Positions 9,374-48,858 of a DNA stretch of 64,000 nucleotides are shown in pieces. The translations under genes and the position numbers were made by a program. The notes beneath the pieces are model-generated. The model saw nothing but the letters and a program-made list of their open reading frames with translations, ran no database searches and was not told the origin of the DNA. Source of the DNA: an uncultured Thermoleophilaceae bacterium (GTDB lineage: Bacteria > Actinomycetota > Thermoleophilia > Solirubrobacterales > Thermoleophilaceae); contig CAWBNP010000002.1 in the NCBI GenBank assembly GCA_963790245.1, positions 1,101,625 through 1,165,624 of the forward strand, read 5' to 3'. Position 1 is the stretch's first letter; every line of letters starts with the position of its first letter.

Positions 9374-9617
9374 GAACGCCGAGCATCAGACATATGAGTC
9401 GGCCACCGCCAGGCTCGAGGAGATCATCACCCGCCTTGACTCGGGCGAGGCCGAGCTGCGCGAAACGCTTGCGCTCTGCGTCGAGGCAAAGCAGCTGATC
9501 GAGTTCTGCAAACTGGAGCTCGAGGAGGTCTCCGGCGCGCTGACCGAGCTGCGGCTCGACGAGCTCGTCTCTGAACTCGGGCGCCGGACTGATGAGGCCG
9601 ACCGAGAGACCCCTTAG
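9366..9617 (+). CDS. xseB: Exodeoxyribonuclease VII small subunit
   Basis: 83 aa, with YESATARLEEIITRLDSGEAELRETL typical of XseB. It overlaps xseA by 8 nt. Confidence 0.85.
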   Translation: MTENAEHQTYESATARLEEIITRLDSGEAELRETLALCVEAKQLIEFCKLELEEVSGALTELRLDELVSELGRRTDEADRETP

Positions 9618-11074
9618 GGCTTCGCCGGTTCCTTCCCGTTGTTCTCGCCGGGCGCCGGGACGAGTGACGCCTCCCCGCGCTCGAGGCTCGGGAATCGCTC
9701 GTCGTTGAACAGCGACGGAGGCTGAACGAAGCACGGCGGTATGTCCGGCTTTGCTATTGGCTGCTCCCCACCTGTCGGCTTGCAGTCGAACGCCTCGACC
9801 GTCCCGAAGCCTCGGGAACGGGAGAGGTAGTTCGGAGCCGGGTAGGCGTTACCACGGTCATAGGCCGGGCGATCGCGCGCGATACCGATGCCGCGCGAGC
9901 TGATGATCCCGAACTGCCGCAGGTAGTGGCGGGGACCACCGTCGCCGGTCGGGGGCAACACGCCGGAGAGACTGGAACCGCCGTTGGTTATGAAGTCGGC
10001 GACCTGTCCGCGCTGGTAACTCGCGAACGAGAGGAACGGATTGAGCTCGGGAAGGAAGCGGTGGGCGCTCCGAAGGAGCGGCTCGGCGCCGCGCAGGAAG
10101 CGGGACGCCTGGGGCAGAGTCCGGTCGGACTCCTCGATCACTACGTCGAGCCCTTCGAAGAGGGTCTCGAGATCGGGAGCCAGCTTGCCGACGTTGCGCG
10201 CGGTCGGCGGGATATCGCGCGCGACGGGGATCAGATCATTGACCAGCGGCTTGGTATCGCCCGCAAACCCCTCGAGCCGCTGGAATGTGAGCCGCGACTC
10301 CTCGAGGAAAGTCGGGAGCACCTGAATCGTCTCGGCCAGTGCATCGCGACGCGAGGCCAGGGCGCCGAAGAAGCCATTCGCGTTTCCGACCAGGGATCGC
10401 AGCTCGCCCTCGCGCTCGGTCAGCGTGCGGAAGACCACCCCGGCGTTTCGGACCAGCCGTTGCACTGCGGGCTCCTGCTGATCGACGACCTCGAGCAGGT
10501 CATCGCCCCGGAAGACGAACGACGGCAGCGTCCCGATCGCGTCGTTGAGGTTCTCGCCGTTGCCGTCGATCGTCTTCGCGAGCTCGCGCGCGACGCCTTG
10601 GAACGCGCGGCGCGTCGGTTTGTCAAAGGTCGAGATCACCTCATCGATCTCGGTCGGCTCGGCGATACTCGCACGCGGCAGCGTCCCGCCATCAGCCAGC
10701 TTCGGAACCTCTTCGGAGCCCTGGGTCAGCTCAATGTAGATCTGTCCCAGCAGCGTCTTCTGGCGCAGCACGGCCCTCGTGTCGGACGGGATCGGGGCAA
10801 AGCGCGCATCGAGCTCCATCTCGACCAGCATTCCGCCCTCCCGGCGGAGTTCCTTGGTCTTGACCTTGCCGACCGTCAACCCGGAGATCCGTACATCGGC
10901 CTCGTTGACGAGCAGTGCGGCCTCGTCGAAGTAGGCCTTGAAGCGGTAGCCCTGCGCGCCGAGCGGGACGGCCCCGCCGAACGAGATCCAGAGGAACATC
11001 AACAGACCGAAGCACGACAGCGCGAAGCCGACGAGCGCAGCGATCTTGGCCGGTGAGGGTGCTGTCTTGTCCAT
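9614..11074 (-). CDS. MCE family protein (6th of 6)
   Basis: N-terminal TM helix followed by an MlaD/MCE domain (YRFKAYFDEAALLVNEADVRISGLTVGKV). Its ATG overlaps the upstream stop by 1 nt. Confidence 0.85.
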   Translation of the reverse strand: MDKTAPSPAKIAALVGFALSCFGLLMFLWISFGGAVPLGAQGYRFKAYFDEAALLVNEADVRISGLTVGKVKTKELRREGGMLVEMELDARFAPIPSDTRAVLRQKTLLGQIYIELTQGSEEVPKLADGGTLPRASIAEPTEIDEVISTFDKPTRRAFQGVARELAKTIDGNGENLNDAIGTLPSFVFRGDDLLEVVDQQEPAVQRLVRNAGVVFRTLTEREGELRSLVGNANGFFGALASRRDALAETIQVLPTFLEESRLTFQRLEGFAGDTKPLVNDLIPVARDIPPTARNVGKLAPDLETLFEGLDVVIEESDRTLPQASRFLRGAEPLLRSAHRFLPELNPFLSFASYQRGQVADFITNGGSSLSGVLPPTGDGGPRHYLRQFGIISSRGIGIARDRPAYDRGNAYPAPNYLSRSRGFGTVEAFDCKPTGGEQPIAKPDIPPCFVQPPSLFNDERFPSLERGEASLVPAPGENNGKEPAKP

Positions 11075-12402
11075 CAGCCGGGGCAGAGCCCTGGGTCGTT
11101 GAGCAGGTCGGTGACGCCGAGCAGGGCGGATGTGAGCTCGGGACTTGGCGAGGAGTTGATCAGAGCGTCGAGCGTAGAGCAGCTCGCGGAGGAGATGAAC
11201 CGGCGGTAGGGGCCCTGGGCATCTCCGGTAGAGAACACCGAGACGCCGTTCTGAGCTACCCAGCCGAGCCAGAACAGATAGCCCTCGTCGCGAGCGGTGC
11301 CACCTTCCGGACCCTCGGCGCCGCCGGGGTTGTTGGCGGCGATGTTGAAGAACCGGTTGAGTTCTGCAAAGGAGGCTCGGAGATCGGGACCCGCACGCCC
11401 GAGGTCGCGTGCTGCCGGGCGCACGACATCGACGTAGGGAACTGCGGCGCGCACGAGCGGACGGACGTCCTCGCGAAGGATCGGCTCGCCCTCGCGAGCG
11501 AACTGCTCGACCACCGGATTGGTGCGGTCGAGTTCACGGACAACCGGCTGGAGCGAGTCAAGCGCGGGCAGCTTCTGCCCGAGCTCGTTGACTCGCAGGA
11601 GCGTCTGTTTGGCTTGGCCGAGGGTTGCGGGGAGCTGACTGACCGCGCTCGAGACGCCCTGCTCCTGCGAGCCGATCGCGCGGAACACCCGATTGGACTC
11701 GCGCACGAGGGTCGCGAGCTCGTCGTCACGGGTGGCCAGCTCGCTCGCGCTCTGGTTGGTGTTCGAGATCAGCCGCGTGAGGTTCTCCCTGCGCAGCGCG
11801 ACCTGCTCGTTCAGCCGCCGGATGTCGCGGAAGAGCGGACCGAGCCGGCGGAAGACCTCGCGTAGATCCCCTCCGCGGTCCTCGAGGCCCTTGCCGGCGC
11901 CGGTCAGCAGCAGGCGCAGATATGCGCGGGTATCGGAGTCGAGCGCCGAGAGGATTTCATCGGGGTTGATGTCGGGTGCGGTGTTCTCGACCGAGATCAG
12001 CGAGTTCTCCTCGAGCGCCGGCTCCGACTTCGAACCCGGGTCGAGCTCGAGAAACATGTCCTTGAGCCCCGTCCGTGGACGCAGTAGGGCGGTGGCATCC
12101 GAGCGCACCAGATCGGAGTACTCCGGGTCGAGGTCCATCCGCACCCGGGCAAGCCCGTTCTCGAGTTCGACCTCGCCGATATCGCCGACCCGCATGCCCG
12201 AGACGCGAACCGTCTGGCCCTGGCCGGGATTGACACCGCGCGCATTGGTGAATTCAGCCCACATGTAGACCGGGCCGCGCTCGACGATCGGCAGGCGAAC
12301 GCCCTGCTCGAGAAGGATGTAGGTCGTCACGGCCACCGAGAGGACGACCAGCGCAACGATCGCGATCGCGTCCGGCAGGCGGCCCAGCACTGCGCGCTTC
12401 AT
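11074..12402 (-). CDS. MCE family protein (5th of 6)
   Basis: N-terminal TM helix plus an MCE domain (WAEFTNARGVNPGQGQTVRVSGMRVGDI). ATGA overlap with the upstream gene. Confidence 0.85.
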   Translation of the reverse strand: MKRAVLGRLPDAIAIVALVVLSVAVTTYILLEQGVRLPIVERGPVYMWAEFTNARGVNPGQGQTVRVSGMRVGDIGEVELENGLARVRMDLDPEYSDLVRSDATALLRPRTGLKDMFLELDPGSKSEPALEENSLISVENTAPDINPDEILSALDSDTRAYLRLLLTGAGKGLEDRGGDLREVFRRLGPLFRDIRRLNEQVALRRENLTRLISNTNQSASELATRDDELATLVRESNRVFRAIGSQEQGVSSAVSQLPATLGQAKQTLLRVNELGQKLPALDSLQPVVRELDRTNPVVEQFAREGEPILREDVRPLVRAAVPYVDVVRPAARDLGRAGPDLRASFAELNRFFNIAANNPGGAEGPEGGTARDEGYLFWLGWVAQNGVSVFSTGDAQGPYRRFISSASCSTLDALINSSPSPELTSALLGVTDLLNDPGLCPG

Positions 12403-13974
12403 CGCTTACCCCCCAGCTCGGAGAGCAGCGGATCGAGTTCGGTGGCGCCGCGGATGTGGCGGTCGAGGCCCTCGAGCTGCTCGGTTGCCCGCTCGGCGTC
12501 GAGCCCGGCTCCACGGGGCTGGGGCCGTACCATCTCGCCGGCGAGCTCGGGTCCACCGGCGACCGGCTCGAGGTTCGGCGGCTCCTGGGTCTCGCAGGGA
12601 ACGTCGGGACGGAAGCTGGGTTGGCGGTCGGGACGCATCGGCACGATCCCCTGGAGCGGGAAGTCGAGCTGGGCGAAGATGTCATCGCCCAGGACCCCGG
12701 GTGAGGCGAGGGTCACCGGGCCGCCGCCCGCCTGCACCCGGAAGTACGGCGTGTTGGCATCCGAGAGGCGGCTCTCGCCCGCGAGGCCGACGAACGAGCG
12801 TGGCGACTGCTCGAAGAACGGCTCGCCGTCGAGTTTCTCGAAGATACGGATGCGGGATCGGCGTCTTGGAGAAGGGCAGCAGCACGTTGTTCTGGCAGGA
12901 GGCGAATGCCCGCGTCTGCTCGAGCGTACGGGTCTGCTGGAGGTTCAGGTGGGCAAGGCGCGGGACGGTCTTGCGCAGGCGGGGCGCGAGCGCGCCGAGC
13001 TCGCTCCGGGAGACCAGCTGACGGGCCTGGCGGGTGAACGGGATCTGCTCGTCGAGCGCCGGGCGCGAGGAGCGCGCTGCCGGGAGCGCGGCGTCGGCGA
13101 ACTCGCCGAGCGAGGGCAGCCCGCGGTTGAGCGACTGGAGGGCCGGGCGGCCGGTGATCAGGACGTCGCGCAGGGCCGGAATCGTCGCGCGCAGCGAATC
13201 GTCCTCACGTGCGAAGGCCCCGGCCGTCCGGTTGAGGTTGACGACCAGGTCGCGGAGCGATTGCTCGTCCCGCACCAGCGCGCCGAAGATCTTCTGCTGG
13301 GCGGCGATCACGCCGCTCAGGTCGTGGGGACGACGCCCGAGCGTCGCCTCGTTGGCGATCGAAGTGCTGCGGTACGCCCCCTCCCAGTGGCGGATCGCCT
13401 CGTTGAAGCCCTCGGCCCCGCCGCGGTCCAGACCCTTGGAGAACTCGGCGAGGAAGCTGCGCAGATCATCGCGCGTGTCGGACTGGAGTGCCGTCAACAG
13501 CTCACCGAACTGGACCGGCGAAGCGGTCTGGTTGACAGGGATCGTGCCGCCATTCGCCAGTTCGGGCGACGAGGGAGCGCCGGGCTCGAGGTCGACGAAG
13601 TAATTGCCCTCCAGGAAGATCCGCGAGCGCACCGTAACCCGGGCGTCCTCGCGCACCGGCAATCCGGCGTCGTCGATCTCCATCGACAGGCGGATCAGAT
13701 TCGATCCGTCGCCGACCGGCTCGATTTCGGTGACGGTGCCGACGTCAACGCCCGCCGTTCGAACGGGGGAACCTCGCTTGATGTCGTTGACGTCGCTGAA
13801 GACCGCATCGACGGCGAAGGTCTGTGTGAACGGCCGCTGGCCACCGTAAGCGAAGTAGATCACTGCAGCGAGCACCAGGAGCGCAACGACGCCGACCCGC
13901 AGCCGTGGCCAGCCGCCGAGTCGCGGAGCGACCCGCTCGAGCGGGGTGCTCGGGTTCTTGATCGGCCTGGCCAT
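12399..13974 (-). pseudogene. MCE family protein (4th of 6); reading frame interrupted near 12838-12862 as assembled
   Basis: ORF 12682..13974 has a normal TM plus MCE N-terminus. After ...CQNNVLLPFSKTPIPHPY its tail turns Arg/Pro-rich and looks like out-of-frame sequence. The +1 frame continues plausibly (FEKLDGEPFFEQSPRSFVGLAGESRLSDANTPYFRVQAGGGPVTL...) and ends in an ATGA overlap with the next mce gene at 12399-12402. Confidence 0.7.
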
Positions 13975-13976
13975 TG

Positions 13977-15512
13977 CTACTTCACGTCCTTCAGCGAGTT
14001 GATGCCCAGCTCGCGCGTCTTGAAGGTCGGACCGGCGCGCCCGGGGGTGCTCGGATCAATCACGACGTTGCTGCCGCCCAGCTGATCGGGGTTGTTGCTC
14101 GGCTTGTAGCGAGCGCCGGTCTGGAGGCTGTCGAGGTATCCGCGCTGGCCGCTCTCGCAGTCGGCGCGGCCGCGCTCGTCGACCGCCGGGGAGTAGTACT
14201 GGCGGTGGAGGGCCTGCAGATCGTTGCCCGACGGGTCGCGCGCATCCTGCGGGTCCTGATTGGCGGGGATGTCGACCGGCCGCTCGGCTGTCGAGTCGCC
14301 GAGCCGGTTGTTCTGGCCGGCGAGGTCGGAGCGCAGCAGAACCCGCTGGATGTTGCCTCCTGGAAGCGGTTCGGAGAGGTGCTCGGAGAGCCCGGTCCAG
14401 TAGTAGTTCCAGTAGTTGCAGACGGTCTGGTAGGGAGCCACGAATTCGAGCAGCGGGGCGGTCACCTCGAGGGTCGTCTCGAGATCGCGCAGCGCCAGCA
14501 GGGTGTTCGGGTTCTCCGCGAGCGTGTCGAGCGAGCGGAAGACGTCCTCCGTGCGGCGGTGGAACGGAGGCGCGTCCTCGAGTACGGGGCCGCCGGTCTC
14601 GAGCGCCCGCGTCACTGCGGGCAACCGTCGCTCGAGCTCGCGCACGGCGGGATCCAATTCCGTGAACAAGACCTCGGCCCGCGCGAGGAAGGGACGCTGG
14701 ACGGGAAAGCTCTGGATACCCGCTTGGAGGGTTCGCGGGGAACGCTCGATCGCCGAGCGGAGCGCCGCCGGGTCGGCGCCGAGCGCCTCGAAGGTCGTCG
14801 CCATGTTCGCGAACAGCTCTGCATAGGTGCCGGCGACGGGGGCGATCTCGGCCACGAACCGCTCGGCGCTCGGGAACAGCCTCCGCAGCTGGGTCTGCGG
14901 ATCGGAGAGGTTGCGCATCACCGGCTCGAGGTGGGTCAGGAACGGAACGAGCCCGCCGATCGTCTCGTTGATCGCGCTCCCGCGGCCGGCGAGCGCGGTG
15001 CCGTAGCCGAGCAACACGGTGCGCTGCGAGTCGCGCGTCGGCTGGTCGTTCTGGCTGAAGAACTCGTCGAATTCGACCGGCCGGGTCGCATTGCGCAACG
15101 GGATCCGGTCACCCGCCACGAGCGAGCGATCACTCGAGCCGGGCGTCAGCTCGATGTACTTCAGGCCTACCGCCGAGCGCGGCCTCACCATCACGGCGGT
15201 GTCCTCGGGCAGCGGCTCGATCGCCTTGTCGAGCTTGATGTCGGCGACCGCGATCGAATCGCCGTTCCTCGGATCGACATCCGGGCGCAGGCCGCTCAGC
15301 TGGCCGACGCGGAAGCCGCCGACCCGCACCTCCGCGCCCTTGGCGAGGTTCGAGCCGCTCGGCAGCTCGGCGCTGAGGTCATAGGTCGGGACGAACGGAA
15401 AACCCTTGTTGGCGTTGTAGCCGAGGAAGACGGCAACCACGATCACGAGCATCGTGATCGCCCCGACGAGCACCGGGCTGGCGACGATCGAGGTGTTGGG
15501 CTTGCGGCTCAT
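13977..15512 (-). CDS. MCE family protein (3rd of 6)
   Basis: TM helix plus an MCE domain (YDLSAELPSGSNLAKGAEVRVGGFRVGQL). Confidence 0.85.
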   Translation of the reverse strand: MSRKPNTSIVASPVLVGAITMLVIVVAVFLGYNANKGFPFVPTYDLSAELPSGSNLAKGAEVRVGGFRVGQLSGLRPDVDPRNGDSIAVADIKLDKAIEPLPEDTAVMVRPRSAVGLKYIELTPGSSDRSLVAGDRIPLRNATRPVEFDEFFSQNDQPTRDSQRTVLLGYGTALAGRGSAINETIGGLVPFLTHLEPVMRNLSDPQTQLRRLFPSAERFVAEIAPVAGTYAELFANMATTFEALGADPAALRSAIERSPRTLQAGIQSFPVQRPFLARAEVLFTELDPAVRELERRLPAVTRALETGGPVLEDAPPFHRRTEDVFRSLDTLAENPNTLLALRDLETTLEVTAPLLEFVAPYQTVCNYWNYYWTGLSEHLSEPLPGGNIQRVLLRSDLAGQNNRLGDSTAERPVDIPANQDPQDARDPSGNDLQALHRQYYSPAVDERGRADCESGQRGYLDSLQTGARYKPSNNPDQLGGSNVVIDPSTPGRAGPTFKTRELGINSLKDVK

Positions 15513-17089
15513 GGCGAGAGGAGGAAGTCGAGCAGCCCGCCGGGCGCGGTCGGTTGATCCCCTGGGGCGGATGGCTGCTCGGAGGGGGCGGAGGCAGTCT
15601 CTGGGATCGCAGGCGGCTGGTCATCCCGGCCCGCGCTTCGCTCGGCCGGACGGCTTCTGACGGCACGGGCCGGGCGCTCGCGGGCATCGGCGGCTTTGGC
15701 GTCGGCCGGCGGCCGCTCGGTCGGATCGGGATCGGCCGGGCCGAAGTCGAAGCGGCCGACCTTGCCCTTGGCCTCGCTCAGACCGGGCTGGTAGGGGCCG
15801 AGCAGAGAGCCGCAACGGGCGATATCCGATTCGGTCGGGTTGGCCGAGTAGGGCGAGCACTTGGTGTCGCGCAGCAGGACGATCCGCAGCAGGTGCGAGA
15901 CCTCGTCATAGACGTTGGTCGACAGCGTCTGGTGGTAGATGTAGTTCCAGAAGGCCTCCATCCCGGTGAGCCCCTGGCCCTCGCGGTAGGCGGTCTTGTC
16001 GGGCTTGGGTGGCGCCAGCCTGGCGGCGAGCGGATCGTCCTCCGTCGAGCGCGCCCGATCGTCAAGCGCCTGCAGGAACTGGCGCAGCGGCTCGCCGAGC
16101 CGCGGCGCGTCCTCCGCCAGATCGCGCAGCGTGGAGACCTCCTCACGGCTCTCGCGCAGCGCTTCGCGGCCTGCCCGCGTGCTGTCGGAGAGGCCGCGAT
16201 TGGAGTCGCGTGCCGACTCGGCGAACGGCCGCAGGGCGCTGATGAACCGGCGCAGCTCCGGTGCGCCGGAGCGCAACCGGTCGAGCAGCGGGATCTGGCG
16301 GCCCGCGGTGTCCTCGAGCTGGGCAAGGGTCGGTCGCAACTGGCCGAGGAAGATCGGCAGATCGCGCCATTGAGCGGCGATGCTCTGTTCGCGGGAGGCC
16401 TGGATCGTGGCCGTCTCGGAGGCCTCGGTCGCCCACCGCGAGAGCTGCTCCTTTGCCGGGGCGACGGCCGCAGCGACCGTGTCCGAGTCGCGGATGAACC
16501 TGGAGATCGAGCGATTCTGGTCAGCCAGGATCTTGAAGGTCTCGCTCGTCTCGCGGAGCCCCGGATGGGCTCGCCGGATCACCTCGTTGAGATCATCGGG
16601 ACGGCCCGCGAGACCCGTCCCGAGCTCCGAGAGAATCAACCGGAACCGCTCCCGGTAGGGCAGGCGCATGACGTTCTGCACGAGGTCTACCGGGATCGTC
16701 GAGGAGGTCTGTTCGACGGGCACGGTGCCGCCTGCGGGAAGCGGATCCCCCGTGCCGAGTTCGCAGTCGACGAAGTACTCGCCGATCAGGGATTGCTGAC
16801 GCACTCCACACTCGGCGTCCCTGCGCAGCGACTGGAAACCCGGCTCGGAGATGTCGATCTCGACCACGACACGCCGGGGCTCGTCCTCGGTCAACTCGAA
16901 TCCTTCGACCGTCCCGCCCCGTACCCCGCCGACCTTGACGTCGCCACCCTCGACCAGTCCGAAGACATTGTCGAACACGACGTGGTAGCGCTTGCCCTCG
17001 AGCTCGCTCTCCGAGGCGGCGGTCAGGACGGCAGCGCCGATCCCCAGCGCGACCACGGCCAAGATCGTGACGAACCCCCGGGCGGTCAC
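15509..17089 (-). CDS. MCE family protein (2nd of 6), with a Pro/Ala-rich C-terminal tail
   Basis: TM helix plus an MCE domain (YHVVFDNVFGLVEGGDVKVGGVRGGTV). 4-nt overlaps at both ends. Confidence 0.85.
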   Translation of the reverse strand: MTARGFVTILAVVALGIGAAVLTAASESELEGKRYHVVFDNVFGLVEGGDVKVGGVRGGTVEGFELTEDEPRRVVVEIDISEPGFQSLRRDAECGVRQQSLIGEYFVDCELGTGDPLPAGGTVPVEQTSSTIPVDLVQNVMRLPYRERFRLILSELGTGLAGRPDDLNEVIRRAHPGLRETSETFKILADQNRSISRFIRDSDTVAAAVAPAKEQLSRWATEASETATIQASREQSIAAQWRDLPIFLGQLRPTLAQLEDTAGRQIPLLDRLRSGAPELRRFISALRPFAESARDSNRGLSDSTRAGREALRESREEVSTLRDLAEDAPRLGEPLRQFLQALDDRARSTEDDPLAARLAPPKPDKTAYREGQGLTGMEAFWNYIYHQTLSTNVYDEVSHLLRIVLLRDTKCSPYSANPTESDIARCGSLLGPYQPGLSEAKGKVGRFDFGPADPDPTERPPADAKAADARERPARAVRSRPAERSAGRDDQPPAIPETASAPSEQPSAPGDQPTAPGGLLDFLLSP

Positions 17090-18570
17090 TCGATCGGCCC
17101 CGTCGCGCGATCGTCCTCATCGCAGTCGAGCTCGCGCTGCTCGGCCTCCGAGAAAACGTTGGACCCGTCGGCCGCCGGTTCCTCGGATGCGCCGGGGCAG
17201 CGCTTGAACTGCTCGGTCCGGGCGAACTCCTTGAAGACCTCACCGCGGAGGTTCGACGTATCGAAGCCGAGCGAATCGGAGAAGTCGGCGAGCACGCAGC
17301 CGCCCGCGAGGACGGCGGCCTCGGGACAGGGCACCCCGGGCGGCAGTTGGGGCGTGAACGCATTGAAGTAGATCTGGGAGCGCGAGAAACCGCCGAGCGC
17401 ATCGGTTCCGCCGGTGTGGGAAAAGTCATCCAGCCAGCCGAAGAAGTCGGTCGTGTAGGGCCGGCCGTGCGCGATGACCGGCGCGCTGTCAGACAGCGCC
17501 TCCCCCAGCTCGGGGAACGCGCCCCGGCGCTGCTCGCCGTTGCGGCGAGCCTCGTCGAGCGCGATTCGGGTCAGCCCCGGGAACGTACGGTTCAGCTCGA
17601 CGAGGTCGTTGGCTTGTCCCGGTGAGCGCAGCACGCGCGAGAGCTCCCGGACCGGATCGACGGCGTCGCGCGCGAACGGCCGCAGCTGCGCCAGGTAAGG
17701 ACGCAGCCGCTTTGCAACCGGCTTCGATGCCGCTACGAACGGCTCGACACGGTCCAGTGTGTCGCGCAGGTTGACGAACGTCGTGTTGGCTGAACGCATG
17801 AAGGGCGGGAAGCGCTCGACGACCTCGGCCAACGCGACGCGCTCGGCAGCCAGCGCTCCGGTCGTACGATTGAGGTTGGTGATCAGCGGCCCGAGATCCT
17901 CCCGACGGTCCGAGAGGGCCGTCACAAGTGAGGAGGTATCGACAAGGAAGCGCTCAAGCACGACGGGGTCCTGACTGAGCTCCTCGAACAACCGGCTACT
18001 CGCCGAGAGCGAGGAGTTGAGGTAGCGCAGGCCGCGATTGGCGTCCTCGCCGCGCCCTGCGTACTGGCGGGCCTGTCCCTTGAAGAAGCCCTGCAGCGCG
18101 CCGCGCGTCTTCTCGTCGAAGATGCTCAGGAACTGATCGAACTCGACGTTGGTCGTCGTGTTCCCGACCCGAATCAGGCCGCCGTCGGGAATCGGCTGTT
18201 GGCCCTTCTCGGCCGGCGCCATGTAGAGATCGATGTACTTGTTCGCGATCGAGGCCTGACCGCCCTGGCGGATCACCGCGCGCGTCCCCTCCCGCAACGG
18301 CGCGTAGCGCTCGTCGATCTCGACGTCGACCTCGATCAGGCCGTTGGGCCCGATGTCGACGCCTTTGACCAGACCCGCCTGCGCTCCGCCGACGAGCGCC
18401 AGGTTGCCGCTCACCAGCTGCCCGGCGTTCTCGAACTGGATCCGCACCTGATAGCCGCCCTGACCTGAGAGCAGGACGAGCAGGACCAGGACGAGCGCCG
18501 CCAGGACCGCCCCGAAGGCGGCCACTCGCCCGACCGTGCTCAGCGACGGTCGCGCTCCCTGCTCGCTCAA
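17086..18570 (-). CDS. MCE family protein (1st of 6)
   Basis: TM helix plus an MCE domain (YQVRIQFENAGQLVSGNLALVGGAQAGLV). TTG start at 18570, with an in-frame GTG alternative downstream. Confidence 0.85.
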   Translation of the reverse strand: MSEQGARPSLSTVGRVAAFGAVLAALVLVLLVLLSGQGGYQVRIQFENAGQLVSGNLALVGGAQAGLVKGVDIGPNGLIEVDVEIDERYAPLREGTRAVIRQGGQASIANKYIDLYMAPAEKGQQPIPDGGLIRVGNTTTNVEFDQFLSIFDEKTRGALQGFFKGQARQYAGRGEDANRGLRYLNSSLSASSRLFEELSQDPVVLERFLVDTSSLVTALSDRREDLGPLITNLNRTTGALAAERVALAEVVERFPPFMRSANTTFVNLRDTLDRVEPFVAASKPVAKRLRPYLAQLRPFARDAVDPVRELSRVLRSPGQANDLVELNRTFPGLTRIALDEARRNGEQRRGAFPELGEALSDSAPVIAHGRPYTTDFFGWLDDFSHTGGTDALGGFSRSQIYFNAFTPQLPPGVPCPEAAVLAGGCVLADFSDSLGFDTSNLRGEVFKEFARTEQFKRCPGASEEPAADGSNVFSEAEQRELDCDEDDRATGPIE

Positions 18571-18629
18571 TTGTCCACCCGGGTCACCCTCAGCACCGGC
18601 CCTCGCTACCTCCCGCTGGCTGCCTCCGT

Positions 18630-19532
18630 CTACCGAGGGTACCCGACCGTACCGTCATCGCGCGCCTCCATGAATGCCGCGTTGCGCGCCTTCATGAAGG
18701 CCGCAAACGAGCCGGCCGTGACGAACATGAAAACGCTGTAGACGGCGGCCGGGATCGCCAGCCTGGTGTCGATCGCCGCGGCGACCGTGATCGTCAGCGT
18801 GCTGTTGTGGATGCCGAGCTCCATCGCGATCGCCGTCGCCTGGCGGTCGGAGAGGCGTCCGAGCCGGGCGGCCGCGAAGCTGAAGGACATCGCGACGACG
18901 TTGAACGCCAGTGCCGCCGGGCCGACAATCGCCAGGCTGCCGGCGATCAGAGCGCGCTCCTCGAAGACCGCGGCGGCGATGATCCCGATGAAGACGACCA
19001 GCGCCACTCGCTTGAGGCGGGGCTCGAGCGCCTGCGCTCGTTCAGGCGCTCGCGCAGCGAAGCTCATCCCGATCGCGAGCGGGATCAGCGTGATCAGGAA
19101 GACGCGGATCACGATCCCGATCAGCGAGACCTCGTTGGTCAGCCCGGTGACGCCGAAGTGCGCTATCGCAAGGCCGAGGAACAGCGGAACGGTCACGACG
19201 GCCGCGACACTCGAGACGGCGGTCATCGTGACCGACAGAGCGGTCTCGCCGCGCGCGAGGTGGGTGAGCAGGTTCGCCATCGTTCCGCCGGGCGAGGCGC
19301 CGAGCAGCACGAGACCGACCGCCAGCAGCGGGTCAAGCCCGAAGATCTCCGCTACCGCGAAGGCGAGCAGCGGCGAGACGAGCAGCAGATTGCCAAGTCC
19401 GATCGCCACCCCCCGCGGCGCCGTGAGTACCCGCCTGAAGTCCTCGGTGCGGAGCGAGAGACCGAGCGTGGCCATGATCACGGCGAGGCCGATCGGCAAG
19501 AACAGCTCGACTAGCGGCGAGGCCTCCTCCAC
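18630..19532 (-). CDS. Bile acid:sodium symporter (BASS/SBF) family transporter
   Basis: 300 aa polytopic protein with the SBF signature region LLGASPGGTMANLLTHLARGETALSVTM. It is on the same strand as the first mce gene and 59 nt upstream of it. Confidence 0.8.
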   Translation of the reverse strand: MEEASPLVELFLPIGLAVIMATLGLSLRTEDFRRVLTAPRGVAIGLGNLLLVSPLLAFAVAEIFGLDPLLAVGLVLLGASPGGTMANLLTHLARGETALSVTMTAVSSVAAVVTVPLFLGLAIAHFGVTGLTNEVSLIGIVIRVFLITLIPLAIGMSFAARAPERAQALEPRLKRVALVVFIGIIAAAVFEERALIAGSLAIVGPAALAFNVVAMSFSFAAARLGRLSDRQATAIAMELGIHNSTLTITVAAAIDTRLAIPAAVYSVFMFVTAGSFAAFMKARNAAFMEARDDGTVGYPR

Positions 19533-19663
19533 GCGTAGCTGACCTTACACCGGTCCCGTCCGAAACGTGGTGTGAAAACCCTCCACCCAGGGTGGCTGTT
19601 CGCCACCGCGGCGCGGATTGATGATGGCCGTGCAAGCCAAACCACCGTCCGAGGAGGACTCAG

Positions 19664-20129: not shown

Positions 20130-21956
20130 TTAACGGACCGGCAGCGAGAGGCGCAGGTCGGAGAGCCCCAGCGAAAAGAGCGCGTTAGACGGCCGAGCGA
20201 ACGGCGCGTCGTTGCCGAGCAGCTCGAGCTTCGGCGTGTGGCCGGGGGCGAACCGCCAGCCGTTTGGATACAGCTCGAACCGCTCGATCCCGCGGCCGGT
20301 CGGACGGTAGAGACCGCGCGCGACGAGCGTCTGGGTCCGTCCGTCCGCCGCGACGTCCCAGAGCCGAGCGGCGATCTGTGCGTGCTCGGGCCGGGCGCCG
20401 ATGACGGTGGCGCGCACTCGCACCCGCGGGGAGCCGAGCAGCGTGTACGCGGCTCCGGCGGGGACGGTCGGCAGCCGGTAGGTCGCGACGCCGGGCTGGT
20501 CCCCCGCCGCGACCTGCGCGCACGCGTTGCCGCCGCCGGTGACGGGGTCGATCGCCACGCCGACAGTGGGGCCGCCCGCAAGCGAGCCGACGCGGCGCTC
20601 GGCCGGATCGCTGAAGCGCACCGAACGGGTCGCGAGCCTGCCGAACGTTTTCGCCGCGAACGGCCCGCGCGATCGCTCCGACCGGGGGCAGGTCTGGGTC
20701 AGCGCCTCGACCGTCTCCGCTCGGCCTCTCCCCCGTCCGCGCAGATGTCGATCGAAGAACGACGCGATCCTCGATTCGAGCAGCTTCCGGTCGGCCGTCT
20801 TGTTCTGCGCCCGCTGGTGGCCGAAGTCGCCGAACAGCAGTGACAGCGGGGTCGCCGGGTGAAGCCTGCGTGTCCGCTCGGCGTAGCGGAGCGCCTCGCT
20901 GACGGGAAACAGATCGTCGGTGAAACCGCTCGAGATCAGCAGCGGCGGTGGGCGGCGAGCCGGATCGACGTGGTAGGCCGAGTGAAAGCGCGAGAGCTGC
21001 GAGACCGTGTCGATGGCGAGACGATCGGTGTAGGGCTCGCCGAGCGTGGCGCGTCCCACCCAGCCCGCGACGTCGGCCTCCGGATCGAGACCGAGCGGTG
21101 CGAGGTAGCCCATCGGCCGCCCGGGCACGAACGGCTCGCCGACCGGCTGGCCCGGACCGGTCGCGTTCTGGGCCGCCGCGAAGACGCCGTTCGCGAATGT
21201 CAGCTTCTCGACTCCGACCGGATCGCTGCTCGATCGCGGCGGGCTCGGGACGCCCGACCGGACGCGCCCGTTGGGCGCGATCGCCGAGAGCAGGTCCGAC
21301 CACGGGATCACCGGCGCGGCGGCGGCCAGCGAGAGCGGGCGGCCGGCAGGGCTTCGCCAGCGGACCAGGCGGCCGTCGGGAAGCGCCGTGCGGGAGTTGA
21401 GCGCGGCGAGCTCGAGGCTCTGGCCGCCGCCGTAGGAATCGCCGCTGACCCCGATCCGGCGCGGGTCCGCGAAGCCCTGATCGACGAGCCGTCCGATCAG
21501 GGTCTGGGTGTCCCGCGCCTCGTAGCGGATGTCGGCGAGGTGGATGTAGCCCGCGGCGCAGGCGACCGGGGAACGCAGCCGCGCCTCTGGCGTACCGCAC
21601 GAGCCCCACAGTCCGCGCGAGGTGTAGGTGAGAACGAGGTAACCGCGCCGCGCGAACTCGAAGGCGTTGCCTGTGTAGGCCGACGAGCTCGGGTCGAGGT
21701 ACTCGTGCTTGGAGTTGCCGAAGCCGTGCAGCAGCACGATCAGCGGCCGGCGGCGGACTGCGGCGCTCGGCGCCGTCACCGTCGCGTCGAGCGGAACGCC
21801 GTCCCACGTGCTGACGAGGCCGTCGCAGCGATGGAGGCCCCCGACGGCTCGGCAGTTGTCCAGGTCCAGTGGCGCACCGGCGGCCGCCGGTGCGGGCGCG
21901 GCGAGAAGCGTGAGCGCAGCCAGACCCAGGACGCGCCTCCGCGCTCGGCGCGCCAT
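20130..21956 (-). CDS. Secreted alpha/beta hydrolase (CocE/NonD or S15 X-Pro dipeptidyl-peptidase-like)
   Basis: Signal peptide, HGFGNSK oxyanion region, nucleophile elbow GVSGDSYGG, 608 aa. Confidence 0.65.
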   Translation of the reverse strand: MARRARRRVLGLAALTLLAAPAPAAAGAPLDLDNCRAVGGLHRCDGLVSTWDGVPLDATVTAPSAAVRRRPLIVLLHGFGNSKHEYLDPSSSAYTGNAFEFARRGYLVLTYTSRGLWGSCGTPEARLRSPVACAAGYIHLADIRYEARDTQTLIGRLVDQGFADPRRIGVSGDSYGGGQSLELAALNSRTALPDGRLVRWRSPAGRPLSLAAAAPVIPWSDLLSAIAPNGRVRSGVPSPPRSSSDPVGVEKLTFANGVFAAAQNATGPGQPVGEPFVPGRPMGYLAPLGLDPEADVAGWVGRATLGEPYTDRLAIDTVSQLSRFHSAYHVDPARRPPPLLISSGFTDDLFPVSEALRYAERTRRLHPATPLSLLFGDFGHQRAQNKTADRKLLESRIASFFDRHLRGRGRGRAETVEALTQTCPRSERSRGPFAAKTFGRLATRSVRFSDPAERRVGSLAGGPTVGVAIDPVTGGGNACAQVAAGDQPGVATYRLPTVPAGAAYTLLGSPRVRVRATVIGARPEHAQIAARLWDVAADGRTQTLVARGLYRPTGRGIERFELYPNGWRFAPGHTPKLELLGNDAPFARPSNALFSLGLSDLRLSLPVR

Positions 21957-24821: not shown

Positions 24822-26564
24822 ATGGGATTCATCACCCCCGCGCCGCCGCCCGTCGACATCGAGGAGTGGAAGACCAAGCCTCACCTCGAGCGGATCAAGC
24901 CGCTCGCCCAGGACTGGGCTGTCAACGGCTTCGGCACTCCGGGTGCGGTCTACCTGCTCTACATCGTCAAGCTCGTGCTCTTCTCGATCGGCGCGATCTG
25001 GCTGATCTCGGCGACGCCCGGCCTCGGCGGCCTCAGCGATTTCGCGCAGTGGTGGCGTGAGCCGATCGTCTGGCAGAAGCTCGTCGTCTGGATGATTCTC
25101 TGGGAGCTGCTCGGTCTCGGCTCGGGGTCGATGCCGCTCACGTTCCGCTTCCTGCCGCCGATCGGGGGCATCCTCTTCTGGCTCCGTCCGGGCGCGATCC
25201 GACTGCCGCCGTGGCCCGACAAGGTCCCGTTCACGCGCGGCTCGCGGCGCACGATCGTCGACGTCGCGCTTTGCGCCGGCGTGCTGATCGGAGCGATCTA
25301 CCTGCTGCTCTCCCCGGGTCTGCCGAGCGCGGGGATCGAGGCCGGCCGGCTCGATCCGTACGCGATCGGAGCCGAGCTGATCCTGCTCGTCCTGCTCGGC
25401 CTGCGCGACAAGGTCTCCTACCTCTCGACCCGGCCGGAGATCTACGGCCTTCTGCTGGTCGTCTTCCTGTTCCCGCTCGAGAACATGGTCGTCGCCTCGC
25501 AGATCGTGCTCGTCTGCGTCTGGTTCGGCGCGGCCTCCTCGAAGCTCAACCACCACTTCCCGTACGTGGTCTCGGTGATGATCTCCAACACGCCGTGGAA
25601 CCGCTCGCGGTTCATGAAGCGGCACCTCTACCGCAACCACCCCGAGGATCTGCAGCCCTCGCGGTTCGCGTTCACCGCCGCCCACACCGGCACGGCGATC
25701 GAGTTCCTGTTCCCGTTGTTGCTGCTGGCGACCCAGGGCGGAGCGATCGGCGCGATCGCGGTGGTCGCGATGCTGATCTTCCACATCCACATCACCTCTA
25801 CGTTCCCGCTGGCGGTCCCGCTTGAGTGGAACCTGTTCATGATGTTCGGGCTGTTTTTCCTGTTCACGGGGACGAATGCCGCGGCGCCGTTCACGGACCT
25901 CGAGAGCCCGCTGCTGTGGGCGATCGTCCTGACCAGCGGCGTGCTGGTGCCGATCCTCGGGAACTTCCGACCCGACCTGATCTCGTTCCTGCCGTCGATG
26001 CGCTACTACGCCGGCAACTGGGCGACCAGTCAATGGCTGTTCCGCAAGGACTCGGGCGCCGAGGAGAAGCTCGAGGCGCGGGTGACGAAGTCCGCGCCGA
26101 TCGTCGTCAATCAGCTGACCGCGCTGTATGACCGCGACACGGCCGAGCTGACGCTCTCCAAGGCGCTCGCGTTCCGCGCGATGCACTCACATGGCCGAGC
26201 ACTCAACGGCCTGCTGCCGCGGGCCGTTGACAAGCTGGAGGACTACACGGTTCGTGAGGGGGAGTTCCTGGCCGGCGTGACACTCGGGTTCAACTTCGGT
26301 GACGGCCACTTCCACGGCGAGCAGCTGCTGGCCGCGGTCCAGGAGCAGTGCGACTTCGAAGCGGGTGAGCTGCGCGTGATCTCACTCGAGTCCCAGCCGG
26401 CGCATATCCAGCGCCAGCGCTATCGGATCTACGATGCGAAGACCGGGCTGATCGAGGAGGGCAACGTCAACGTCGCCGACATGAGAGCGCGCCTTCCGTG
26501 GCTCTCGCCGACCGACGAGTTCCCGGTCGAGATCACCGGCGGCCGCGCCGCGCCCGCTACGTGA
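24822..26564 (+). CDS. Large polytopic membrane protein of unknown function (resembles the DUF3556 family as I recall it)
   Basis: 580 aa. A multi-TM N-terminal two-thirds is followed by a soluble C-terminal region. No catalytic motif recognised. The family assignment is from memory and needs an HMM check. Confidence 0.6.
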   Translation: MGFITPAPPPVDIEEWKTKPHLERIKPLAQDWAVNGFGTPGAVYLLYIVKLVLFSIGAIWLISATPGLGGLSDFAQWWREPIVWQKLVVWMILWELLGLGSGSMPLTFRFLPPIGGILFWLRPGAIRLPPWPDKVPFTRGSRRTIVDVALCAGVLIGAIYLLLSPGLPSAGIEAGRLDPYAIGAELILLVLLGLRDKVSYLSTRPEIYGLLLVVFLFPLENMVVASQIVLVCVWFGAASSKLNHHFPYVVSVMISNTPWNRSRFMKRHLYRNHPEDLQPSRFAFTAAHTGTAIEFLFPLLLLATQGGAIGAIAVVAMLIFHIHITSTFPLAVPLEWNLFMMFGLFFLFTGTNAAAPFTDLESPLLWAIVLTSGVLVPILGNFRPDLISFLPSMRYYAGNWATSQWLFRKDSGAEEKLEARVTKSAPIVVNQLTALYDRDTAELTLSKALAFRAMHSHGRALNGLLPRAVDKLEDYTVREGEFLAGVTLGFNFGDGHFHGEQLLAAVQEQCDFEAGELRVISLESQPAHIQRQRYRIYDAKTGLIEEGNVNVADMRARLPWLSPTDEFPVEITGGRAAPAT

Positions 26565-30598: not shown

Positions 30599-33064
30599 TC
30601 AACCAAAGTCACCGAGCTCGATCCCCAGACGTCGGGGATCGAGCTCGATCGGCGTGACGCTGCCCGGCCGGAACTCAACGTGGTCGGGCGGCTGGCGCAA
30701 CGCGCGCCGGCGGCGCGGCGCGCGTCCGCGGGGTTGGGTGGGGGTCGGACCCGACGGTGTCGGGACGACCAGCTCGCGACGCAGCGGCTCCGCGGTGATC
30801 GTGATCCGTTCGTCCTCGTGGGTGACCTCGATCGGGGCGCCGTCGAGCAGCCGGTAGGTGACGCCGCCGTCCAGCTCGACCTGGATCCTGCTGCCCCGGA
30901 AGGAGATGCGGAAGCTGATCCGCTCGAGACCGGCCGGCATCCGCGGGCGGAAGGAAAGCTCGCCGTCGTGGTCGCGCATCCCGCCAAAGCCCGCGACCAC
31001 CGCGAGCCAGCCGCCGGCCGACGCCGCGATGTGCAGCCCCTCCCCCGTGTTGCGCTGCAGATCGTCGAGGTCCATCAGCGCCGATTCCGCGAGGTACTCA
31101 TAAGCCAGATCGACGTGACCGACCTCGGCGGCGACGATCGCCTGCATGGCGGCCGAGAGCGATGAGTCACGGACGGTCAGCGGCTCGTAGTAGGCGAAGT
31201 TGCGCTCCTTCTCCTCGAGCGTGAAGGCGTCACCGCGCAGGTAGAGAGCCATCACGAGGTCGGCCTGCTTGACGACCTGGCGCCGGTAGAGCTCGAAGTA
31301 GGGGAAGTGCAGCAGCAGCGGATAGCGGTCGGGCTCGACGGCGTCGAAATCCCACGCCTTGTGCTCGGTGAACCCCTCCGCCTGTGGGTGGACCTCGAGC
31401 CGCTCGTCGTAGGGAACGGCCATCGCGTCGGCGGCCGCTCGCCAGTCTCCGAGCTCCTCTTCGGCGACGCCGAGCTCGGCGGCGCGGTCGGGCTGGCGGC
31501 CGCAGCTGTCGGCCGCCGAGCGCAGGTTCTTCTGCGCCATCAGGTTGGTGTAGATGTTGTCGTCGGCGAGGGCGCTGTACTCGTCGGGTCCGGTCACCCC
31601 GTCGATCCGGAACTCGCCCTCGAGGTCGTAGTGGCCGAGCGACAGCCACAGCCGCGCCGTCTCGACCAGCAACTCGGTCCCGACCTCGCTCTCGAACGGC
31701 TCGTCGCCGACGACCGCGAGGTAGCGGGTGACGGCGTCGGCGATGCTCGCGTTGACGTGGAAGGCGGCGGTGCCGGCCGGCCAATAGCCCGAGGACTCCT
31801 CGCCGTGCAGGGTGCGCCAGGGGAAGGCCGCCCCCCTCAGCCCGAGCTCCTTTGCGCGCTCGCGCGCGGCGGGAAGGATCGAATGGCGCCAGCGCAGCGC
31901 GTCGGCCGCGGCCTCGGGGCGCGTGTAGATCAGTAGCGGCAGGACGTAGGTCTCGGCGTCCCAGAAGGCGTGCCCGTCATATCCGGGGCCGGTGAGCCCC
32001 TTGGCCGGGATCGCGCGGACCTCGGCGCGGGCCGAGTTCTGGAGCCCTTGGAACATCCCGAAGCGAACGGCCTGCTGGAGCTCGGGGTCGCCGTCGAGCT
32101 CGACGTCGGCGGCCTCCCAGTACTCGTCGAGATAGGCGCGCTGGCTGGCGACGAATCCGTCCCAGCCGGTGTGGGCCGCCTCGGCGAGCGCCGCCTCGAC
32201 CTGCCCGCGTAGCGAGGGGAGCGAGCGGCGGCTCGACCACCCGTAGGCGACGAACTTGGTCAGCTCCAGGGCCCCGCCGGTCGGCAGGTCCGAGGCGATC
32301 GTCAACCGCGCCAGGTCGTCCTCGGTCTCGACGCGGACGACCTCGGTTCCGTCGGGCGCGCTTAGCGTGTGGTCCATCGCGACGGCCAGCAGCAGGTCGC
32401 TCGCCTCGGTTGCGTGAGCGAGTGTGGCCCGCATGCCGTCGGACGCGTGCTGGCGGGGCTGCAGCGGCCGTTCGAGGATCGCCGCGCTGCGCGGGTCATC
32501 GGCCTGGCCGAGCAACGGCTCGTTGGCGACCAGTTCCGACTGGATCACGACGCGCGCGGCGTCGCCGAGCGGCTCGACGCAGTAGTGGATGGCGACGATC
32601 GCGCGCTGGACGAGCGAGACCATGCGCGTCGAGGTGACCCGGACGCCTCGTCCCGTCGGAGAGACCCACTCGACAACTCTGCGCAGCAGGCCGGCGCGGA
32701 AATCGAGCACGCGCTCGTGGCTGCGCACCTCGCCGTAGCGCAAGTCGAACATCTCGTCCTCGACCAGCAGCCGGATCAGCTTCCCGTTGGTCACGTTGAC
32801 GACCGTCTGACCGGTCTCCGGATACCCGTAGCCGAGTTCGGCGTGCGGCAGGGGGCGACGCTCGTAGAACCCGTTCAAGTAGGTCCCGGGCAGCATGTTC
32901 GGCTCGCCCTCGTCGAGGTTGCCGCGGATCCCGACGTGGCCGTTGGAAAGCGCGAACACCGACTCGGACTGGGCCATCCGGTCGAGGTCGAGCGTGTGCT
33001 CGACGACGGTCCAGGGATCGACGCCGTAGCGCTCCAGCTCGCCTGCCCCCGGATTGGGGGCCAT
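30599..33064 (-). CDS. Glycoside hydrolase family 65 phosphorylase (trehalose/maltose/kojibiose phosphorylase-like)
   Basis: 821 aa. N-terminal ESVFALSNGHVGIRGNLDEG and a central catalytic region (GYDGHAFWDAETY) are typical of GH65. Confidence 0.85.
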   Translation of the reverse strand: MAPNPGAGELERYGVDPWTVVEHTLDLDRMAQSESVFALSNGHVGIRGNLDEGEPNMLPGTYLNGFYERRPLPHAELGYGYPETGQTVVNVTNGKLIRLLVEDEMFDLRYGEVRSHERVLDFRAGLLRRVVEWVSPTGRGVRVTSTRMVSLVQRAIVAIHYCVEPLGDAARVVIQSELVANEPLLGQADDPRSAAILERPLQPRQHASDGMRATLAHATEASDLLLAVAMDHTLSAPDGTEVVRVETEDDLARLTIASDLPTGGALELTKFVAYGWSSRRSLPSLRGQVEAALAEAAHTGWDGFVASQRAYLDEYWEAADVELDGDPELQQAVRFGMFQGLQNSARAEVRAIPAKGLTGPGYDGHAFWDAETYVLPLLIYTRPEAAADALRWRHSILPAARERAKELGLRGAAFPWRTLHGEESSGYWPAGTAAFHVNASIADAVTRYLAVVGDEPFESEVGTELLVETARLWLSLGHYDLEGEFRIDGVTGPDEYSALADDNIYTNLMAQKNLRSAADSCGRQPDRAAELGVAEEELGDWRAAADAMAVPYDERLEVHPQAEGFTEHKAWDFDAVEPDRYPLLLHFPYFELYRRQVVKQADLVMALYLRGDAFTLEEKERNFAYYEPLTVRDSSLSAAMQAIVAAEVGHVDLAYEYLAESALMDLDDLQRNTGEGLHIAASAGGWLAVVAGFGGMRDHDGELSFRPRMPAGLERISFRISFRGSRIQVELDGGVTYRLLDGAPIEVTHEDERITITAEPLRRELVVPTPSGPTPTQPRGRAPRRRRALRQPPDHVEFRPGSVTPIELDPRRLGIELGDFG

Positions 33065-41341: not shown

Positions 41342-41927
41342 CGGGGTTGACCTGCCCGACGTTGGCCACCAGCCGGTCGACGTCGAGATCGAGGTGCGGC
41401 AGCAGGTCGATCTTGTTGATCACGACCAGCTCACAGGCGCGGAACATGAGCGGGTACTTGAGCGGCTTCTCGACACCCTCCGTGACGCTCGCGACCATGG
41501 CGCGCGCGTCCTCGCCGATTCGGAATTCGGCCGGGCAGACGAGGTTGCCGACGTTCTCGACGAGCAGCAGGTCGATGTCTGAGAGCGGTAGCGACGGCAG
41601 CGCGCTGCGCACCATGTTCGCGTCGAGATGGCACTCTCCGCCAAATCCGTTACCAGTGTTGAGCTGGGTCACGGGGATGTGGAGCAGTGAGAGCCGATCT
41701 GCGTCGAAGGAGCCCTGCACGTCGCCCTCGAGCACCCCTGCGCGCAACTCGCCGAGCCCGTCGCCACCGAGGACCCGTTCGAGCAGGGTCGTCTTGCCGG
41801 CGCCCGGCGAGCTCATCAGATTCACCACGCGGACTTCCTCACGATCGAAATCGGAGCGGTTGGCTGCCGCGATCGTCGTATTCGCGTCGAGCGCGTCGCT
41901 GGCGACGGTCACCTTTGTGCGATGCAT
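41241..41927 (-). CDS. hypB: Hydrogenase nickel incorporation GTPase HypB
   Basis: P-loop MSSPGAGKTTLL and ENVGNLVCP motifs. I chose ATG 41927 (RBS AAGGAGGA) inside track ORF 41241..42134. Confidence 0.9.
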   Translation of the reverse strand: MHRTKVTVASDALDANTTIAAANRSDFDREEVRVVNLMSSPGAGKTTLLERVLGGDGLGELRAGVLEGDVQGSFDADRLSLLHIPVTQLNTGNGFGGECHLDANMVRSALPSLPLSDIDLLLVENVGNLVCPAEFRIGEDARAMVASVTEGVEKPLKYPLMFRACELVVINKIDLLPHLDLDVDRLVANVGQVNPDARCLLVSAKTGEGVDQFADWLAEVAGRVLSAA

Positions 41928-42265
41928 GCGTCCTCCTTGTCTTCGACGACGATTGACTCGACCTCGAACTCCTCGCCTGCCACCGCGCGCCCGGTGCCTC
42001 CACAGGCGCAGACAAAGACCGGGAGGTCGAGCTCCCATTCCTTTGCGCACGACTCGCAGCGCGCCCGCCCCGCGATCATCGTGTGGCGCAACTCGGCGCC
42101 CTCGCAGAGCGTGTCGCGCGCGACGATCCCCCAATAGAAGTCGAGCGAGTCGGGAACGACCTGGCGCAGCGCGCCGATCGTCATCTCCACAGCGGTCACG
42201 CGCCGGCCCGCGGCGTGCTTGAGGACCGTGCCGAGGATCGCCTCGCTCAGGGAGAGCTCGTGCAA
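41909..42265 (-). CDS. hypA: Hydrogenase nickel insertion protein HypA
   Basis: (TTG)HELSLSEAIL N-terminus and zinc site CESC...CACGG. TTG start at 42265. Confidence 0.85.
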   Translation of the reverse strand: MHELSLSEAILGTVLKHAAGRRVTAVEMTIGALRQVVPDSLDFYWGIVARDTLCEGAELRHTMIAGRARCESCAKEWELDLPVFVCACGGTGRAVAGEEFEVESIVVEDKEDACIAQR

Positions 42266-43850: not shown

Positions 43851-43857
43851 CAGCTCT

Positions 43858-47758: not shown

Positions 47759-47774
47759 TTCGTTCTCCTCCGCG

Positions 47775-48839: not shown

Positions 48840-48858
48840 CAGCTCTCCTCTTTCCTCG

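Follow-up and report, generated by a model that had tools for sequence, protein, structure and literature searches.

We analysed a 64-kb stretch of DNA from an uncultured Thermoleophilaceae bacterium (contig CAWBNP010000002.1, positions 1,101,625 to 1,165,624; hereafter referred to as the window), which has a GC content of ~69% and whose nearest relatives carry the label Thermoleophilaceae. The subject of this report is a cluster of seven co-directional open reading frames (ORFs) on the minus strand (9614-19532), which starts with a gene for a secondary transporter of the BASS (bile acid:Na+ symporter) family and continues with six mce genes (Table 1). The six genes, hereafter referred to as the hexad, are named mceA to mceF according to their positions. 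An earlier description of this DNA, made from its letters without database searches (the sequence-only reading), was followed up by Pfam scans of 50 ORFs of the window, with the gathering score as the cut-off, and by the comparative searches described below.

All six mce ORFs matched the Pfam family MlaD above the gathering score (E 1.6e-07 to 1.4e-15), and each translation has a single hydrophobic segment, located at its N-terminus. These results agree with the sequence-only reading, which had assigned an N-terminal transmembrane (TM) helix and an MlaD/MCE domain to six consecutive ORFs. Its further statement that the genes are joined by overlaps of 1-4 nt held for the A/B, B/C and E/F junctions (Table 1), but mceC and mceD are separated by a 2-nt gap, and mceD and mceE overlap only after the repair of a frameshift (see below).

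Table 1. Features of the BASS-mce cluster and its 5′ region, with coordinates in the window
Feature	Coordinates	Strand	Description
Divergent intergenic region	19533..19663		131 nt; between the BASS gene and a small gene for a probable secreted protein
BASS/SBF secondary transporter gene	18630..19532	-	300 aa; first gene of the co-directional cluster
BASS-mceA spacer	18571..18629	-	59 nt
mceA-position gene	17086..18570	-	494 aa; TM helix, MCE barrel, helical region, tail; MlaD 1.6e-07
mceB-position gene	15509..17089	-	526 aa; MlaD 3.8e-12; 4-nt overlap with mceA
mceC-position gene	13977..15512	-	511 aa; MlaD 9.3e-11; 4-nt overlap with mceB
mceD-position gene	12399..13974	-	interrupted; MlaD 7.6e-14; in-frame ORF 12682-13974
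mceE-position gene	11074..12402	-	442 aa; MlaD 2.9e-12
mceF-position gene	9614..11074	-	486 aa; MlaD 1.4e-15; 1-nt overlap with mceE; last gene of the cluster

An AlphaFold2 (AF2) model of the mceA-position protein, built with 69 orthologues, predicts a TM helix at residues 12-35, an MCE beta-barrel at residues 40-140 (block pLDDT 66-92, mostly >80) and a long helical region, with helices between residues 144 and 338, of low pLDDT. The low values in this needle region are to be expected, because the monomer was modelled outside the hexameric needle. In a Foldseek search, the best matches of the model were the six Mce1 subunits of Mycobacterium smegmatis (8FEF, 8FED), aligned over 290-400 columns, followed by MlaD. 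The best PDB sequence match of the mceF-position protein was Mce1B (8fed_B, 2.8e-09), and four of the six Mce proteins gave weak matches, under the threshold, to the Pfam family Mce4_CUP1. The sequence-only reading had also seen in the cluster the heterohexamer-type layout of actinobacterial Mce systems. The six tandem MCE genes conform to this layout, but the individual subunits do not correspond to the canonical ones: BLASTP comparison with the MceA-F proteins of two operons, from Rhodococcus and Pseudonocardia, gave bit scores of 30-92 without a diagonal, that is, without a one-to-one correspondence. Inspection of the translation revealed no cysteine in the N-terminal hydrophobic segment of the mceE-position protein, which therefore has no lipobox. 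The system is deeply diverged, as judged from the missing one-to-one match to MceA-F together with the missing lipobox cysteine at the E-position.

The operons of the Rhodococcus plasmid pRB11 and the Pseudonocardia plasmid pBCI2-1, which have the textbook layout yrbEA-yrbEB-mceA-F ... ATPase, provided the seeds for YrbEA, YrbEB and MceG. These were used in phmmer and hidden Markov model (HMM) searches, with all filters off (--max), of the six-frame translations of the window and of 83 related loci (~0.66 Mb of loci; search space, 1.21 million residues). In the window, the YrbE and MceG HMMs hit nothing better than E 0.16, and the Pfam scans found neither MlaE nor ABC_tran among the 50 ORFs. 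The statement of the sequence-only reading that no MlaE/YrbE or MceG-like gene occurs in the 64 kb was thus confirmed by Pfam, phmmer and HMM searches alike. The Pfam scans of the window gave no match to the PqiA family either.

The related loci (n = 87) came from a genome-collection scan (3 loci), from a metagenome scan with an MceC alignment as the query (80 loci, with mceC orthologues at 45-60% identity) and from look-ups of MceA homologues (four contexts with DNA: L086, L087, L093 and L094). All 87 loci are compatible with the gene order A-B-C-D-E-F, and 23 of them hold all six genes. At E <= 1e-10, MceA has 2638 homologues; the best 120 of them are 53-91% identical, and the five named organisms among these 120 are four Thermoleophilaceae and one Actinomycetota. 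The plasmid collection, with zero Thermoleophilia records, yielded mce operons from Actinomycetes only, at 24-28% identity. The hexad belongs to a large, vertically inherited and strictly collinear family of soil Thermoleophilaceae and Solirubrobacterales, and forms a deeply diverged, self-contained six-gene operon that is common in soil.

Neither yrbE nor mceG was found in any of the 83 related loci searched with phmmer and HMMs. Three further 21-kb contexts, for which precomputed Pfam annotation was used, contain no MlaE; the only ABC ATPase in them is part of a ZnuA/ABC-3 metal-uptake operon. When four canonical YrbE sequences served as the profile query, 7996 matches were obtained, and every named organism among the 120 listed belongs to the Mycobacteriales. 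In short, what is conserved among all 87 loci examined (~0.7 Mb of Thermoleophilaceae/Solirubrobacterales DNA) is that neither yrbE nor mceG occurs in cis.

The flanks of the hexad are variable and mostly of a housekeeping nature. A gene for a chorismate-binding enzyme lies upstream of mceA in 16 loci, eight of which have ilvN further up, usually with ilvB; other loci have an epimerase gene plus a small ORF, SufBD or PMT genes at this position. A conserved 92-aa ORF upstream of mceA, considered as a candidate cis partner, turned out to represent two unrelated small proteins, both absent from the window; one of them has no hydrophobic stretch and looks soluble. Seven loci (L030, L047, L048, L049, L054, L057 and L076) have a divergent wax-ester synthase/diacylglycerol acyltransferase (WS/DGAT) gene ~0.2-2 kb from mceA. 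On the other side of the hexad, a protein of ~238 aa with ~4 TM helices is encoded after mceF, mostly at a distance of 20-70 nt, in L044, L048, L054, L057, L063, L065, L076, L078 and L043. It has weak matches to Yip1 and DUF4153 and is absent from the window, L001 (a 92% relative) and L002 (a Solirubrobacterales chromosome). Confined as it is to these nine loci, this Yip1-like protein was dropped as a candidate cis partner, though in one subclade it may serve as an accessory membrane protein. Two loci have genes for an FMO-like (Baeyer-Villiger-type) monooxygenase and an SDR directly after mceF and co-directional with it (L002 18869-21019 and L093 18985-21086; 70% and 77% identity), which looks like an operon extension.

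We consider it probable that the hexad is a self-contained operon for a heterohexameric Mce assembly, and that the genes for the membrane partner and the motor lie at other places in the genome. All single-domain MCE rings characterised to date (MlaD, Mce1 and TGD2) are, to our knowledge, mounted on a permease of the MlaE type, and M. tuberculosis already has its MceG gene at a separate locus; for these reasons, a YrbE pair and an ATPase at another locus would be the simplest completion of the system. The sequence-only reading had offered a borrowed permease and ATPase as one of two options; this option is strengthened by the lack of yrbE and mceG in cis throughout the orthologous clade.

The same absence can be read differently, namely that the hexad works without an MlaE/YrbE-type permease, being passive, energised by an unrelated partner in trans, or anchored by its own six TM helices. 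In its favour, yrbE and mceG are missing from within 10 kb of the hexad in all 87 related loci. The system has also diverged deeply from the canonical MceA-F, with an E-position protein that has no lipobox cysteine, and MCE proteins are able to work with partners outside the ABC family, the pairs PqiB-PqiA and LetB-LetA being examples. Weighing on the other side are the MlaE-type permeases under all of the characterised single-domain rings, the M. tuberculosis example of components encoded apart, and the lack of any alternative membrane protein conserved in cis, the Yip1-like protein with 4 TM helices being restricted to nine loci and missing from the window. We regard this permease-free mode as unlikely. 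Its broader form, in which an Mce system without MlaE/YrbE or MceG anywhere in the genome extends throughout the Thermoleophilaceae and Solirubrobacterales, a few lineages having recruited it beside BASS or FMO-SDR genes, seems doubtful to us.

The fourth gene of the window hexad carries a lesion. Its ORF stops at 12682, 279 nt short of the fifth gene, and three-frame translation showed that the C-terminal 112 codons resume in another frame (12399-12737). DNA alignment with the intact orthologue of L001 (524 aa; L001 13835-15409) located the cause to one extra T (+1 nt) near 12844, outside any homopolymer run; ~140 C-terminal residues of MceD are lost as a result. Repair of the frame creates a 4-nt D/E overlap. 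The extra T could be either an assembly error or a real inactivating mutation. A decaying pseudogene cluster, in which mceD has been cut by the frameshift and MceD has lost its last ~140 residues, would account for the lesion; yet the other genes shared with L001 are intact and equal in length to their L001 counterparts or different by <=4 residues, and the frameshift amounts to one base within an assembly of 2.37 Mb. Moreover, the separate metagenome-assembled genome (MAG) chromosome of L002 also has disturbed frames (L002 16054-18872), where mceE and mceF are fused and then shifted to give a 778-aa ORF followed by a 155-aa ORF, which suggests indel errors in that assembly. Because L002 also shows such shifts, an assembly error in the window is at least as likely as decay, and we judge a pseudogene cluster to be highly improbable.

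The first gene of the cluster encodes a protein that matches Pfam SBF at 1.1e-36 (126.8 bits against a cut-off of 24.3). Its residues 11-283 align, over ~260-270 residues, with the 10-TM carriers ASBT_Yf and ASBT_Nm (E 1e-25 to 1e-29). As judged from these alignments, it is a carrier of the ASBT type, complete, of standard length and free of extra domains. The sequence-only reading had described a 300-aa BASS/SBF gene on the same strand, 59 nt before mceA; the carrier is indeed full-length, and the gap measures 59 nt. Neither a sigma-70-like promoter nor a T-tailed terminator was found in the spacer. A hairpin of ~75 nt (-38 kcal/mol; window 18560-18650, minus strand) spans the BASS stop codon and the spacer with a z score of -2.2 against shuffled sequences, and has no T-tail. 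The equivalent segment of L001 shows no fold above background (z +0.31) although its DNA is ~80% identical, and the hairpin was dropped as a conserved BASS-mceA terminator. The spacer is not decisive for or against a pairing of BASS with the mce genes. The divergent region 5′ to the BASS gene contained no consensus promoter; from the gene orientation, it is likely to be the promoter region of the seven-gene unit.

The sequence-only reading had raised the prospect of a new pairing between an MCE tunnel and an ion-coupled carrier, and had named a lack of conservation of the BASS-mce neighbourhood in relatives as the finding that would speak against it. BASS homologues near the hexad were found only in the window, L001 and L002. 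Among the 27 related loci with >=1 kb of sequence before mceA, only L001 has a BASS gene directly upstream of mceA, at the same position as in the window; among the 16 with >=1 kb after mceF, only L002 has one downstream, where a BASS gene at 67-68% identity lies ~2.1 kb after mceF, beyond the co-directional FMO-like monooxygenase and SDR genes. In a 74% relative, the gene upstream of mceA is on the opposite strand. A relative with 63% identity in MceA has an epimerase gene and a small ORF upstream, with no BASS gene within 10 kb. In the relatives with 60% and 57% identity, this position is taken by a PMT gene and by SufBD genes, and the 10-kb flanks fetched contain no BASS gene, the 60% locus (L093) ending ~2.5 kb past mceF. 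When BASS orthologues were taken as the starting point, those with 73%, 70% and 69% identity proved to occur in three contexts with zero mce genes within reach, their neighbours being genes for TetR, beta-lactamase-fold, aldo-keto-reductase, ADH, MMPL, FMO and esterase proteins. Since the neighbourhood is not conserved, the proposed pairing does not stand: the BASS gene is a lineage-specific neighbour of the hexad and not a conserved partner.

These results bear on the idea that the BASS protein replaces YrbE as membrane partner and energiser, giving an ion-coupled MCE transporter. What recommends it is that the BASS protein is the sole multi-pass transporter in cis, encoded immediately upstream on the same strand, and that PqiA and LetA provide a precedent for non-ABC partners. 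The hexad does without BASS, however, in 26 of the 27 upstream flanks and 15 of the 16 downstream flanks, two enzyme genes part BASS from the mce genes in L002, BASS orthologues of 69-73% identity occur without mce, and the protein has the make-up of a complete ASBT-type carrier of standard length, without additional domains. The idea is already largely refuted by the non-conservation, and we give it almost no credence.

A looser connection is conceivable, in which the BASS protein and the hexad of this lineage are linked through substrate or regulon only, as jointly transcribed systems that take up related compounds of an amphipathic or hydrophobic nature, without physical coupling. The two genes are close together on one strand with no recognisable promoter or terminator between them, and the spacer is conserved in L001. 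The L002 BASS gene past the FMO and SDR genes, the occurrence of the same FMO-SDR pair after mceF in L093, and the FMO-like genes near the BASS orthologues in L089 and L092 also point in this direction. Against this, most relatives lack the association, whether viewed from the mce side or from the BASS side, no shared regulator or operator was found, and the FMO-like proteins of L089 and L092 are just 24-29% identical to the mce-linked ones. We hold a link of this kind to be rather unlikely.

We return to the proposal of a hexad completed in trans. With the Mce1 structure as the model, one heterohexamer would be formed from the six different subunits. Their N-terminal TM helices, six in all, would lie in the membrane, their MCE beta-barrels would make up a six-membered ring, and a helical needle with the C-terminal tails would reach into the cell wall. 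The assembly would move hydrophobic molecules, possibly lipids, across the envelope, and an MlaE/YrbE-type permease pair and an MceG-type ATPase would most probably be supplied from another locus. On this reading, the BASS protein is an ordinary stand-alone ten-helix secondary carrier and does not form part of the Mce machine; in this lineage, its gene came to precede the operon, with which it may be co-transcribed. Several points weigh against this proposal. The trans-encoded YrbE and MceG are assumed. BASS genes lie near the hexad in two separate lineages (upstream in the window and L001, downstream in L002), which is somewhat above chance and hints at a functional relation. The mceD frameshift could mean that the window copy is decaying. 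Finally, our search of the literature found no description of mce operons without yrbE, nor of Mce systems of Thermoleophilia; a clade-wide split of mce from permease genes has, as far as we found, no described precedent, and a recent review describes the eight-gene yrbEAB-mceA-F module as broadly conserved (PMC13492129).

As for the substrate, the sequence-only reading had called a shared steroid/lipid theme plausible but unproven, in part from the flanking genes. The flanking genes for acyl-CoA dehydrogenase, MaoC hydratase, SDR and alpha/beta-hydrolase proteins are real, as confirmed by Pfam. The lipid-catabolism genes (acyl-CoA dehydrogenase, MaoC and SDR) are, however, set off from mceF by the convergent housekeeping genes xseA and xseB, and no KstR-type operator was found near the cluster, the single KstR-like palindrome of the window (at 32865) lying inside a GH65 gene. 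A '3-beta-HSD' match, considered as a steroid enzyme, proved to be a generic NAD-epimerase-fold protein. A search of the whole window against Rfam gave no match, riboswitches included. The case for a steroid theme is weak; in some relatives, the presence of WS/DGAT and enoyl-CoA hydratase genes nearby is slightly easier to reconcile with a fatty-acid or neutral-lipid role than with a steroid one, which we take as no more than a hint.

Several neighbouring genes of the window were noted in passing. A 608-aa S15/S9-type alpha/beta hydrolase is encoded at 20130-21956 (minus strand), flanked on one side by the epimerase-fold gene and on the other by the small gene that probably encodes a secreted protein. 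L001 lacks a counterpart, its two flanking genes being ~190 nt apart there; the difference represents a recent insertion or deletion beside the cluster. About 5 kb from the cluster, at 24822-26564 (plus strand), lies a gene for a full-length DUF3556 transmembrane protein (580 aa, E 6.5e-240), which is kept in L001 and not in other relatives. In a 693-aa ORF at 33064-35145 (minus strand), which adjoins a GH65 glycoside phosphorylase gene, an NDH-2-type pyridine-nucleotide-disulphide oxidoreductase is joined to a HAD hydrolase domain at the C-terminus. A [NiFe]-hydrogenase gene cluster occupies 37810-51065 (minus strand), with the large subunit at 45974-47758 and the small subunit at 47775-48965, and also holds hypF, hypD and hypE-like maturation genes as well as DUF6084 and DUF5947 genes.

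Mce systems are usually treated as an invariant eight-gene module (yrbEAB and mceA-F), and their mechanism is known only for ABC-driven complexes. Here, a large environmental clade inherits the six-subunit MCE part as a stand-alone operon. If the permease and the ATPase are encoded elsewhere, this makes a modest point on operon evolution and shared motors, as one YrbE/MceG set could serve one or several hexads. If MlaE should be wholly absent, an actinobacterium that is presumably monoderm would be operating an MCE tunnel with no ABC permease, which would bear directly on the question of how such tunnels are energised. The ion-coupled BASS-MCE machine was an attractive idea that is now unsupported, and it has been removed before further investment; what remains once this headline idea falls is the permease-less, clade-wide operon.

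The closest known systems are Mce1-4, as represented by M. smegmatis Mce1 (8FEF, 8FED). In common with them, the window has six tandem, different and tightly packed genes, each subunit consisting of an N-terminal TM helix, a single MCE domain, a long helical region and a tail, and the best PDB matches in both sequence and structure are Mce1 subunits. Unlike them, the window and its relatives lack yrbEA/yrbEB upstream of mceA. The window cluster also lacks co-directional Mam/Mas genes downstream, the next genes after mceF being the convergent xseB and xseA; its E-position protein is not a lipoprotein; its subunits have no one-to-one match to the canonical A-F proteins tested; and its host belongs to the Thermoleophilia and not to the Actinomycetes. 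With Escherichia coli MlaFEDB, the hexad shares the MCE fold and the N-terminal TM anchor, the barrel giving TM-scores of 0.8-0.9 (target-normalised) against MlaD structures; MlaD, in contrast, is a homohexamer encoded by one gene, has a short helical part and lies in the same operon as mlaE and mlaF. PqiAB and LetAB are the precedent for an MCE tunnel with a non-ABC membrane partner, but PqiB and LetB have three and seven MCE domains per chain, respectively, and partners of the PqiA family, whereas the window proteins have one MlaD stretch each.

The BASS protein of the window shares the 10-TM carrier alignment with ASBT_Nm and ASBT_Yf, and its orthologues adjoin TetR, FMO, esterase or aldo-keto-reductase genes; the BASS proteins of bacteria and plants frequently have small organic anions, and not bile acids, as their substrates. 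For the supply of transporter parts from a distant locus, the nearest parallels are MceG/Mkl of M. tuberculosis and TGD1/2/3 of plants. In M. tuberculosis, such a supply in trans applies to the ATPase alone and the YrbE permeases are encoded in cis, whereas for the hexad we propose that both would be provided in trans.

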